From assembly GCA_045635825.1 (NCBI GenBank), contig JAZTWM010000001.1:52358-116357 (forward strand): DNA of 64,000 nucleotides, in the 5' to 3' direction. The position numbers and the translations under genes are program-made. Below the pieces are notes generated by a model. That model ran no database searches, was not told the DNA's origin, and saw nothing but the letters and a program-made list of their open reading frames with translations. The DNA is from Candidatus Enterousia sp. (GTDB lineage: Bacteria; Pseudomonadota; Alphaproteobacteria; Rs-D84). Position 1 is the stretch's first letter; each line of letters begins with the position of its first letter. Of this stretch, positions 28-2,234 are shown piece by piece.

Positions 28-1266
28 ATGCAAAACAATCTACAAAACTTATACAAACGTGCTTTGGATATGCGTGAACCATGGCTGTCACGTTGGGATT
101 CTGCACGCCGTTATACAATGCCTGCCACAGATGCAGATACGGCCACCTTATATGATGCAACCGCAATGGACGCAGCCGACAATCTGGCGGCGTCTATTTA
201 CACGTTATTAACACCACCCGAATCCATGTGGTTGCAACTGGTTGCAGAAAGTGAACTGTCCCCCGATGCAGAACATGCCACATTGGCCTTGCGTTCCCAC
301 CTGAATGATTCTAACTTCTATACCACGATACATCAGTGTTATCTAGATTTGGTTATTCTGGGTACTGCGTGCTTGTTTATGGGCCAATCCCCAATTGGTG
401 CATCGTCTGCATTTACATTCAATGCAATTCCCATGACAGATATTGCGGTATTACCCAATGCGGTCTTTCACACAACATCAATGCCTGCCCATGAAGTGTT
501 ATCCCGATACCCAAATTGGACACCGCCCAAAGACGTACGCGACACTATTACCAAAGACCCAGAAACACCCATCAAACTGGTTCAAAGTCTGGTCGGGACA
601 GATTTTACAGCCTGGTTGGATGTTGGTGGCGATATTGAAAATAATATCGTATCCACAGGCACGTTTGAAACAAATCCTTATATTATATTTCGCTGGTCTG
701 TGACCACTGGTGAACCGTACGGTCGTGGCCCGGTAATGCGTGCTTTGCCTGATATTAAAACTGCAAACAAGGTTGTTGAATTAGTTTTGAAAAACGCAAC
801 AATCGCCGTATCTGGTATCTGGCAGGCTGATGATGACGGTGTCATAAATCTGCAAAATATAAACCTGACCCCTGGTGCAATTATCCCCAAGGCGGTTGGT
901 TCATCTGGGCTGACGCCATTGACCTGTGGTGCAGACTTTGATGTGTCGCAACTGATATTAAAAGATTTACGTGAACGCATACGTCATACTCTGTTGGCGG
1001 ACAGACTGGGGCTGCTCAGTGAAAAAGAAATGACTGCGACTGAAATTATGGCACGTAATGCAGATATGATGCGAATATTGGGGGCAACATATGGTCGCCT
1101 ATTGCACGAGTTTATCAGACCCCTATGTGATCGTGGCTTACAGATATTGGCACATCGTGGGATAATTGCCCCGATTAAATTGAATGGTGATGCCGAATTA
1201 AAGTATATCGCCCCAATTACGCAAATGACGGCAATGGAAAGTTTGCATGGGGGTGTTGATTTATGA
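28..1266 (+). CDS. phage head-to-tail connector (portal) protein, T7 gp8-like
   Basis: N-terminal and central blocks align by eye with T7 gp8: YKRALDMREPW..RYTMPA vs YERLKNDRAPY..QYTIPS, and IIFRWSVTTGEPYGRGP vs IPIRMVRLDGESYGRSY. It is shorter than T7 gp8 (412 vs 536 aa). Confidence 0.55.
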   Translation: MQNNLQNLYKRALDMREPWLSRWDSARRYTMPATDADTATLYDATAMDAADNLAASIYTLLTPPESMWLQLVAESELSPDAEHATLALRSHLNDSNFYTTIHQCYLDLVILGTACLFMGQSPIGASSAFTFNAIPMTDIAVLPNAVFHTTSMPAHEVLSRYPNWTPPKDVRDTITKDPETPIKLVQSLVGTDFTAWLDVGGDIENNIVSTGTFETNPYIIFRWSVTTGEPYGRGPVMRALPDIKTANKVVELVLKNATIAVSGIWQADDDGVINLQNINLTPGAIIPKAVGSSGLTPLTCGADFDVSQLILKDLRERIRHTLLADRLGLLSEKEMTATEIMARNADMMRILGATYGRLLHEFIRPLCDRGLQILAHRGIIAPIKLNGDAELKYIAPITQMTAMESLHGGVDL

Positions 1267-1466
1267 CGGATATAAACAAGTGTTATACACGTTGCTTTTG
1301 CACACCGTCTGGCGTGCGTGTTTTGGAACATTTACGGTCTATAACGATTGGCCGCACCCTGGGGCCGAATGCCACAGATAACGAACTGCGCTGGGCTGAA
1401 TCACAACGTGCGCTGGTACGCCAGATAGAAACGCTGGTATCGCGTGGCAAGGGGGATGGCGCATGA
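1263..1466 (+). CDS. hypothetical protein, phage-associated; start overlaps the portal stop (ATGA)
   Basis: ORF is translationally coupled to the upstream portal-like gene; no recognisable motif. Confidence 0.3.
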   Translation: MTDINKCYTRCFCTPSGVRVLEHLRSITIGRTLGPNATDNELRWAESQRALVRQIETLVSRGKGDGA

Positions 1467-1699
1467 TAAACCTAGAATTTTTACGCAACAGTTGGTTTTT
1501 AATTGTCTTTATTGGTGGTCTAATTTATTGGGTTGCCCGCCAAGATTTATCTGTTGTGGAATTGGAACGTGTTGATACACGAATAACATCATTGGAAAAC
1601 CGCACAACTGTATTGGAAACAGGTATTGGTCAAATACAAATAAAAATAGACGATATCAAAGAAGACCTGACCCTGATTAAGGGTGCAGTTATCAAATAA
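1463..1699 (+). CDS. small membrane protein with one TM helix and a coiled coil; possible holin- or spanin-like phage protein
   Basis: Hydrophobic segment WFLIVFIGGLIYWV followed by heptad-like LENRTTVLETGIGQIQIKIDDIKEDL; overlaps the previous ORF by ATGA. Confidence 0.3.
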   Translation: MINLEFLRNSWFLIVFIGGLIYWVARQDLSVVELERVDTRITSLENRTTVLETGIGQIQIKIDDIKEDLTLIKGAVIK

Positions 1700-1727
1700 A
1701 TATTTATAACCAAAGGAATATATTCTT

Positions 1728-2234
1728 ATGTCACGACAAATTCAATTTCGGCGTGGAACGGCCGCCGAACACGAAAACTTTACAGGTGCCGTTGGCGAGG
1801 TAACGGTTGATACAACGAACAACACCCTGCGTGTACATGACGGACAAACAGTCGGTGGCACAGCATTGGCGCGTGCGGACGCAGTCACAGATATGACTGG
1901 TGCAGACTATGTCATTGCATGGCAAACACCGACTGCCGATAATAATTACACTTGGTGCCGGAAATATAAGTCGGGTTGGGTTGAACAAGGTGGTATTGCC
2001 AACGGTGATGGTCCACGTCAGGTCATGTTGCCGATTAAAATGGCGGATTCAAATTATTTTATATCAATAACACCCGGGCGCAGCAATGCGGATGCGATAA
2101 CGGGTGCTTCATACACAACCAGCACAAGCACCACATCATTGGCGATATCTGTATCCAATATCAACAGTGGTGCCTACAGCTGGAGTTCCACATCGCCAGT
2201 TCGTTGGATGATTGCAGGTATTGCCGCAGAATAA
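1728..2234 (+). CDS. phage tail fibre-like protein (short, N-terminal domain only)
   Basis: N-terminus IQFRRGTAAEHENFTGAVGEVTVDTTNNTLRVHDGQTVGG matches the hallmark N-terminal motif of phage tail fibre / Mtd-N-like proteins; Ser/Thr-rich C-terminus. Confidence 0.5.
   Translation: MSRQIQFRRGTAAEHENFTGAVGEVTVDTTNNTLRVHDGQTVGGTALARADAVTDMTGADYVIAWQTPTADNNYTWCRKYKSGWVEQGGIANGDGPRQVMLPIKMADSNYFISITPGRSNADAITGASYTTSTSTTSLAISVSNINSGAYSWSSTSPVRWMIAGIAAE

Follow-up and report, generated by a model that had tools for sequence, protein, structure and literature searches.

To our knowledge, the gene transfer agents (GTAs) that have been characterised genetically all derive from long-tailed phages, and the study of GTAs in the Alphaproteobacteria has been built almost wholly on the RcGTA lineage. 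Elements of the RcGTA type (Rhodogtaviriformidae) are compact head-tail clusters of phage origin (about 12-15 kb) that reside in alphaproteobacterial chromosomes, are vertically inherited, lack replication and integration genes and evolve under purifying selection (PMC9662315), and they have been kept under such selection in reduced alphaproteobacterial symbionts of the Rickettsiales and Holosporaceae (PMC9254644). Here, we followed up four phage-type genes at the start (positions 28-2234) of a stretch of 64,000 nucleotides, hereafter the window, from Candidatus Enterousia sp. of the alphaproteobacterial lineage Rs-D84 (GenBank assembly GCA_045635825.1, contig JAZTWM010000001.1, positions 52,358 to 116,357, forward strand). 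These genes are the 3' end of a podovirus-derived cluster of about 12 kb that lies in the chromosomes of 'Ca. Enterousia'/Rs-D84 bacteria, and which is very probably a vertically inherited, selectively maintained T7-like virion cluster. The element resembles the RcGTA type in all of the respects listed above, and the retention of RcGTA-type clusters in reduced symbionts provides a precedent for its own.

Its phage ancestry is nevertheless unrelated to that of RcGTA. RcGTA has an HK97-type portal, a prohead protease, an HK97 major capsid protein (MCP), a siphovirus tail tube, a hub and a megatron protein, whereas the Enterousia element has a T7 gp8-type portal, a T7-type scaffold (PF05396), a capsid of family PF19821, the two tubular tail proteins A and B and a terminase nuclease of T7 type; the families detected are all of T7/podovirus type (PF12236, PF05396, PF19821, PF17212, PF03906, PF22530) and none is of RcGTA type. 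The function of RcGTA has been demonstrated, whereas the Enterousia element is known from its genes alone. T7-like and marine podophages, such as Pelagibacter phage EXVC031P Hodr, carry a homologous structural module (T7 gp8-gp12, gp17 and gp19), but the T7-like phages are 35-40 kb in size, whereas the element spans 12 kb, is passed on as part of the chromosome and lacks RNA polymerase, DNA polymerase, primase-helicase, core proteins and early genes.

Results

Organisation of the cluster

The portal gene begins 27 nt inside the window, so that only the last four genes of the cluster are covered, and the upstream part was reconstructed for this genome from relatives, the closest of which has 82% DNA identity; searches for exact copies of the portal, fibre and Mu-F-lysozyme proteins of the window returned none. 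A scan with one genome per species gave 557 confirmed relatives, and the analyses were carried out on the best 80, which are metagenome-assembled genomes (MAGs) of 'Candidatus Enterousia' or gut Alphaproteobacteria with portals 76-86% identical; their loci are MAG contigs, on which gene order was scored by tblastn. As the initial annotation of the window had supposed, a podovirus-type virion module continues upstream, where every relative has the large terminase, both tubular tail proteins, the capsid and the scaffold directly ahead of the portal. Of the upstream genes that it had named, terminase and capsid were found and an integrase, within 10 kb on either side, was not, both results coming from the relatives. 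The 'fragment' that it had described owes its look to the window, which starts at the portal, and not to a biological truncation.

Read from the left, the cluster in relatives opens with a helix-turn-helix (HTH) remnant, the 151-aa ORF p151, lipB, a SleB-like cell-wall hydrolase (PF07486; PHROG 938, endolysin) and a small membrane open reading frame (ORF), followed by the scaffold (PF05396), a Lys/Ala-rich protein, the MCP (PF19821, 7.6e-71), sm76, tubular tail A (PHROG 394, PF17212), tubular tail B (PHROG 376) and sm115, where sm76 and sm115 are ORFs of 76 and 115 aa. Then come, in about 70% of species, a 182-aa fibre base with the N-terminal domain of the T7 tail fibre gp17 (PF03906; PHROG 1640, 5.5e-13), the terminase gene terN, an opposite-strand block of unk212, a double-HTH regulator and dnaB, and the second terminase gene, terC. 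The right-hand part consists of the portal, a Bbp19-like protein, a transmembrane (TM)/coiled-coil protein, in some loci an Mtd-N mini-fibre, and a terminator. The HTH remnant at the left end is an 81-aa protein that corresponds to the HTH domain of an S24/LexA-like repressor adjoining the portal in more distant relatives. The order is the same wherever the contigs reach (terC in 80 of the 80 loci, DnaB in 79, terN in 76, tubular tail B in 72 and MCP in 70), and the layout recurs in about 50 IMG/VR 'proviruses' of 10-12 kb, in a contig of 886,885 bp that amounts to a nearly complete genome (L162) and in the closest relative, L170 (Bbp19 100%, portal 87%, DNA 82%). Among the IMG/VR loci (L082-L133), the chromosomal element has repeatedly been called a 10-12 kb 'uncultivated viral genome', the cellular dnaB included.

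The left flank is formed by lipB and a tRNA methyltransferase gene, the right one by a variable glycosyltransferase cluster and then frr-uppS-cdsA-rseP-bamA. In several genomes surveyed 10 kb to either side, more distant loci lying outside the survey, no integrase or replication module was found, and the only lysogeny-switch components of the element's own were HTH proteins and the truncated repressor remnant; nor were att repeats found at the element. The Lys/Ala-rich AKKP-repeat protein (Pfam HC2, histone H1-like; 120-170 aa) lies between the scaffold and capsid genes in 65 of 65 loci and ends in a CAKKxCAKKK motif (for example, L002:719-1156), while the phage and Rhodospirillales relatives have no space for such a gene. 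A role as an internal, DNA-condensing protein is possible.

Selection and inheritance

Selection was estimated as pairwise Nei-Gojobori dN/dS from pairs with dS below 1.5, synonymous sites being near saturation (median pS about 0.7). Over the cluster genes dN/dS was 0.07-0.26, with 0.075 for the portal, 0.084 for the MCP, 0.11 for terN, 0.13 for the TM/coiled-coil protein and 0.19-0.24 for terC, the two tubular tail proteins and Bbp19 (about 0.19 for terC and tubular tail B, 0.24 for Bbp19); the value for dnaB, given for comparison, was 0.065. Internal stop codons were almost absent, with none in 80 portal and none in 80 terC genes, and the in-frame stops seen in MCP, tubular tail A and dnaB were dismissed as artefacts of over-long reference ORF starts at the extreme ends. 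Protein distances of the portal follow those of BamA (Mantel r = 0.83, p = 0.001, 33 taxa), and those of portal, MCP, TerL and tubular tail B are correlated with those of the flanking bamA, rseP and uppS (Mantel r 0.51-0.86, p = 0.001); the portal has the lower rate of change, with a mean p-distance of 0.18 against 0.24 for BamA.

Strong constraint, intact frames and co-divergence with bamA together point to a vertically inherited, functional element and not to a strain-acquired prophage or a decaying remnant. The initial annotation had left the choice between a prophage and a GTA-like element; with the same order in 80 species genomes, the conserved, GTA-like side of that proposal was borne out and the strain-specific prophage was not. 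In addition, the genomes of the Rs-D84 hosts are mostly under 1 Mb and have not accumulated pseudogenes (PMC12306168), so that 12 kb of junk are unlikely to have been kept.

A terminase in two pieces

In all Enterousia-type loci the large terminase is encoded by two ORFs, terN and terC, with an opposite-strand block of about 3.3 kb between them that encodes a 212-aa protein of no recognised family, a 335-aa protein with two HTH_3 domains and DnaB. A phage origin of this DnaB was rejected, as it fails the phage_DnaB cut-off and passes the cellular equivalog cut-offs (NF006606, 617 bits against 540; TIGR00665, 505 against 385). Compared with the contiguous terminase of Rhodovibrio, the break comes immediately behind the ATPase C-motif (...IYIGTPH..DTIY) and has cost no residues; a short and variable acidic tail closes terN, and terC starts with MS...FSTPFL.GYK.LKIPI. 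Walker A (GKST), Walker B (CDDVEVPN) and the C-motif (GTPH) are invariant in 73-79 species, as are the acidic residues of the nuclease (WDP, E.NG.G, DDG.DA).

Three ways in which the halves could be rejoined were considered and set aside. A split intein is contradicted by terN, which is ATPase sequence throughout and leaves no room for an N-intein, and by a junction that loses nothing; for excision of the dnaB block by site-specific recombination there were no credible flanking direct repeats and no recombinase; and as to joining at the RNA level through a split group I or II intron, neither junction matched an Rfam family. The locus is most simply read as a stable gene in pieces, the two products of which would associate. 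A gene in pieces made by insertion is known from the split NrdA of phage Aeh1, where an enzyme gene is likewise cut into two separately translated, conserved ORFs, whereas the insert in the terminase is 3.3 kb long, carries the host replicative helicase and not a homing endonuclease, and lies inside the ATPase domain. The terminase of the L134 lineage (portal 56%, GC 51%) is also split by dnaB, with further insertions, and since the split is present in so distant a lineage, it is old. A more distant copy of the architecture suspected in MT835812 ('Bacteriophage sp.', DnaB 49% identical) proved to be a match of DnaB alone.

The 335-aa double-HTH_3 protein (L002:6456-7463, minus strand) has the domain layout of the phage WO male-killing protein Wmk and scores far under the Wmk family cut-off (32.6 against 300 bits). 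It may act as a regulator of the element.

The four genes in the window

The right-hand end of the cluster comprises the following features, in window coordinates.

1-27, plus strand: leader before the portal gene, with a Shine-Dalgarno-like AAGGAAG at 16-22
28-1266, plus strand: ORF1, portal (head-tail connector) of the T7 gp8 family, 412 aa
1263-1466, plus strand: ORF2, Bbp19-like small protein, 67 aa, PF25181
1463-1699, plus strand: ORF3, TM helix and coiled-coil protein, 78 aa
1728-2234, plus strand: ORF4, Mtd-N mini tail fibre/receptor-binding protein, 168 aa
2233-2262, no strand: bidirectional terminator-like hairpin, between the convergent stops at 2234 (fibre) and 2261 (polysaccharide-modification gene)

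The TAA at positions 1-3 possibly terminates the upstream terC gene, which in relatives ends 22-29 nt ahead of the portal ATG; the DNA alignment with L170 begins at position 8. The likeness of ORF1 to the T7 gp8 connector, noticed by eye in the initial annotation, was confirmed by matches to Pfam PF12236 Head-tail_con (E 2e-82, residues 4-403), to PHROG 332 (7e-67) and to solved podovirus portals, among them that of T7 gp8, 6r21 (E 3e-7, residues 4-367 on 12-401). At 409-412 aa, the Enterousia-type portals lack the C-terminal crown segment and tail of phage and Rhodospirillales portals, which have 502-567 aa.

The description of two tiny coupled ORFs, one with a TM helix and a coiled coil, was also correct in its coordinates, and ATGA overlaps at 1263-1266 and 1463-1466 couple ORF1, ORF2 and ORF3 translationally. 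ORF2 matches PF25181 Phage_Bbp19 (2e-10), and its AlphaFold2 model consists of three helices with a predicted local distance difference test score (pLDDT) of 90; a Bbp19-like gene follows the portal directly in every relative, phages included. For ORF2 we found no sequence match in the PDB, no solved fold matching the model and no literature. In ORF3, a hydrophobic helix at the N-terminus (SWFLIVFIGGLIYWVA) precedes a coiled coil; its homologue was found in 80 of 81 sources and shows high conservation (consensus LR.SWFLI.F..G..YW.ARQD...RIT.LENRTT.LE.GIGQ.Q.KID.IKED..LIK.AVIK). With weak XhlA-like matches (PF10779, 0.004; PHROG 1193 'hemolysin', 1e-4), it is a candidate lysis-associated membrane protein of XhlA-like or spanin-like type.

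An RBS-like AAAGGA at 1712-1717 precedes ORF4, and the hairpin CCTGGGGCG-TCA-CGCCCCAGG at 2238-2258, with AAAAA before and TTTT after it, follows. This hairpin, which a simple terminator scan did not list and direct folding confirmed, folds at -24.8 kcal/mol (z = -6.9; none of 200 shuffles as stable), in agreement with the strong bidirectional terminator proposed initially, and it marks the right-hand end of the element. Beyond it, on the other strand, lie genes for a polysaccharide deacetylase/radical SAM protein and for family 2 (GT2) glycosyltransferases.

The Mtd-N mini-fibre

The tail-fibre-type N-terminus noted in ORF4 was real, the recognised motif being that of PF18454 Mtd_N (5e-17; also PHROG 9648, 'tail protein'), and yet the protein is not the N-domain stub it had been taken for. 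It belongs to a family of hundreds of proteins of 150-175 aa from alphaproteobacterial MAGs, and in its AlphaFold2 model (pLDDT 87) the N-domain matches the fold of BPP-1 Mtd (1yu0-1yu4), whereas the C-domain is a beta-sandwich that resembles R-pyocin fibre tips (6cxb/6ct8) and gp53-like fibre C-domains. The sequence is conserved over residues 1-90 and hypervariable over 90-168, as expected of a receptor-binding protein. As modelled, ORF4 is a complete two-domain mini-fibre with an Mtd-type anchor and a pyocin-fibre-like receptor-binding tip. The true stub, of the T7 gp17 N-domain, is the separate 182-aa gene further upstream, outside the window.

The Mtd-N gene occurs only in loci that have this 182-aa gene (18 of 47, against 0 of 20; Fisher p = 6e-4, a statistic that ignores phylogeny). 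In BPP-1, Mtd sits on the fibre ends, and the co-occurrence fits, by analogy, a two-part fibre like that of BPP-1. The two systems share the Mtd N-domain and also the Bbp19 family (here the 67-aa ORF2), while BPP-1 Mtd has a C-type-lectin variable domain in place of the pyocin-tip-like beta-sandwich of ORF4. A diversity-generating retroelement acting on the Mtd-like fibre was considered and rejected, as there is no template repeat anywhere in the 64-kb window; no search was aimed specifically at a reverse transcriptase. A second Mtd-N paralog was observed in L163 (GCA_964313715.1; L163:10001-10468), about 77 kb from the element and 3' of genes for a Pom-like outer-membrane protein and an SLT_2 lytic transglycosylase, and both Mtd-N genes of that genome are convergent with GT2 glycosyltransferase genes.

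Relatives and ancestry

Portal identity shows a sharp gap, with 72-86% within the Enterousia type, 56% for L134 and 46% or less for all others. Relatives at or below 46% have the canonical T7 order of portal, Bbp19, scaffold, MCP, sm76, tubular tail A, tubular tail B, a small ORF, a fibre of about 650 aa and a contiguous TerL. The nearest outside Rs-D84 are chromosomal clusters of the Rhodospirillales (portal 42-46%, MCP 55-65%), and the portal of Rhodovibrio salinarum has homologs at 58-67% across several families of that order, in many Azospirillum and Magnetospirillum species, Skermanella and Limimonas. The clusters of Rhodovibrio and Azospirillum are 13-15 kb long, have housekeeping flanks such as sdhCDAB and lysS and follow an S24 repressor gene; neither an integrase nor replication genes were seen at them, and host signalling genes are inserted midway in that of Azospirillum. 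Free phages are more remote by portal, at 41% for a faecal fragment, 33% for Pelagibacter phage Hodr and about 25% for T7-like phages. Among the chromosomes compared, those of Magnetospirillum gryphiswaldense, Azospirillum argentinense and Rhodovibrio salinarum are L167, L168 and L169, and M. gryphiswaldense has portal, Bbp19 and scaffold alone at the cluster site.

The Rhodospirillales clusters share with the Enterousia element the families from portal, Bbp19, scaffold and MCP through sm76, tubular tail A and tubular tail B to fibre and TerL, as well as housekeeping flanks and, sometimes, inserted host genes, and they differ in their canonical order, contiguous terminase, crowned full-length portal and long fibre. 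Relative to them and to T7, the Enterousia order is permuted: the portal-Bbp19 block has been relocated behind the terminase. In addition, the fibre has been cut from about 650 aa to the 182-aa N-domain, the repressor has lost its peptidase domain and kept its HTH as the 81-aa gene, the AKKP-repeat histone-like gene has been gained, and the C-terminal crown segment and tail of the portal have been lost.

The Rhodospirillales clusters, for which we found no describing publication, may be a domesticated family of far wider distribution. Small particles with random host DNA of about 10 kb are reported to be released by Azospirillum lipoferum and Azospirillum sp. B510, and the assignment of the responsible genes to generic HK97-type prophage regions was only tentative (PMC3899980). 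The T7-like cluster of Azospirillum is an alternative candidate for the source of these particles.

Neighbouring genes in the window

At 12050-13189 on the minus strand lies a gene for a 379-aa fusion of a Mu-F/SPP1-gp7-like minor head domain (residues about 138-230) and a phage lysozyme (257-374), the latter 52% identical to a lysozyme encoded directly after Bbp19 in the L134-lineage element. The gene is part of a variable island rich in tRNA genes (tRNA-Leu 7358, Gly 7575, His 13329, Ala 13519), and the fusion could be a trans-encoded ejection/lysis protein of the element or the scrap of another prophage. Just after bamA, at 21803-22561 on the plus strand, a VirB8-domain protein (PF04335, 2e-9) is encoded and more same-strand ORFs follow; together, these may be type IV secretion genes.

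Discussion

Several of the features by which GTAs are recognised are present in this locus, namely Caudoviricete-derived head and tail genes in the chromosome, vertical inheritance under purifying selection and, within 10 kb on either side, no propagation module of its own. The Enterousia element is probably a domesticated T7-like virion-assembly cluster that functions as a GTA and stems from a phage lineage unlike those of all characterised GTAs, and the best reading of its origin is that it was independently domesticated and is new. In the literature, we found no description of a domesticated cluster of T7 type, of a terminase split by dnaB or of phage elements in Enterousia. Selective constraint is strongest on capsid, portal and terminase, and the catalytic motifs have remained intact, which strongly suggests that particles are assembled and DNA is packaged; a DNA-packaging, GTA-like function appears on balance likely. 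A more specific proposal, which we make only tentatively, is that of a working GTA of an entirely new lineage, derived from a podovirus independently of RcGTA, BaGTA and VSH-1, domesticated before the Rs-D84 radiation, with a two-polypeptide terminase around dnaB and no ejection proteins; its origin is possibly shared with the compact T7-like clusters of the Rhodospirillales.

Here we propose how such an element might work. The host would express the cluster, possibly through the embedded HTH proteins, whereupon scaffold, capsid and the crown-less portal would assemble a procapsid. The terN and terC polypeptides would associate non-covalently and package DNA, most likely host DNA by headful cutting, since there is no recognisable small terminase, replication or integration module. 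Tubular proteins A and B would then close the portal, a short fibre composed of the gp17-N base and the Mtd-N mini-fibre might attach to surface polysaccharide, and the hydrolase together with the TM/coiled-coil protein could release the particles by lysis.

Several points weigh against a GTA. We infer particle, packaging, expression and transfer function alike from sequence. Neither the cluster nor the 64-kb window yielded a homolog of the T7 gp14-16 internal core/ejection proteins or a recognisable small terminase, and our literature search found no characterised working terminase that is split inside the ATPase domain. The fibre-base gene is absent in about 30% of species, and an adjacent Mtd-N gene in most. 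Finally, 3 of the 80 species (L050, L055 and L064) have deleted the genes from MCP through terN, which means that either function has been lost recently or the missing genes have moved elsewhere. The same three were observed to retain intact scaffold, terC, portal, Bbp19 and TM/coiled-coil genes.

Some of these points would equally suit a domesticated particle with another role, such as killing or competition, interaction with partner cells, or export or protection of DNA without delivery. The evidence of conservation and selection applies to such a particle just as well, being silent on what a particle does, and the missing podovirus ejection proteins, the lost portal crown and a fibre module that is dispensable in many species would all be compatible with it, as would hosts that are thought to depend on partner cells (PMC12306168). 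However, the invariant ATPase and nuclease motifs argue for cutting and packaging of DNA, and tailocins have discarded precisely the capsid, portal and terminase, which are the best-conserved genes here, whereas the element keeps all three and has no sheath or long tail-tube genes. We regard another role as unlikely, if the most serious of the competing explanations.

Much less probable is a functionless, decaying prophage remnant that has persisted because the essential dnaB and lipB genes embedded in its footprint make deletion costly. The interrupted terminase gene, the loss of core proteins and early genes and the large internal deletions in three lineages would be in keeping with decay, but hitch-hiking cannot hold reading frames open, and 13 phage-derived genes are intact in about 75 species at the low dN/dS reported above and with synonymous sites near saturation; moreover, the constraint on MCP and portal equals that on dnaB, the catalytic residues are invariant and the hosts have streamlined genomes of less than 1 Mb. 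Least probable of all, and in our view highly improbable, is an active temperate podophage or satellite that has repeatedly integrated at one chromosomal site across Enterousia species. Although IMG/VR pipelines label the region viral and homologous modules occur in free phages (Pelagibacter phage Hodr at 33%, the faecal fragment at 41%), the absence of integrase, replication genes and att repeats, the 12-kb footprint with interleaved host genes, a divergence that follows bamA and the gap in portal identity between 72-86%, L134 at 56% and the rest at 46% or less all speak against it.

The reading of the element as a domesticated, GTA-like cluster has consequences beyond this locus. Because it has already been scored as viral, in dozens of 10-12 kb IMG/VR 'UViGs', prophage counts for rumen and gut are inflated, and if the Rhodospirillales clusters are of the same kind, they could be the source of the Azospirillum particles with about 10 kb of DNA. 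It also raises the questions of whether a terminase can work as two polypeptides and how a short-tailed particle could deliver DNA without core proteins. If true, the podovirus-derived domestication would be a second, independent takeover of a virus by cells, order-wide in gut bacteria with genomes of less than 1 Mb and with relatives in the Rhodospirillales, and it would ask why reduced, possibly partner-dependent bacteria spend 1-1.5% of their genome on virus-like particles, one possible benefit being recombination that counters Muller's ratchet.

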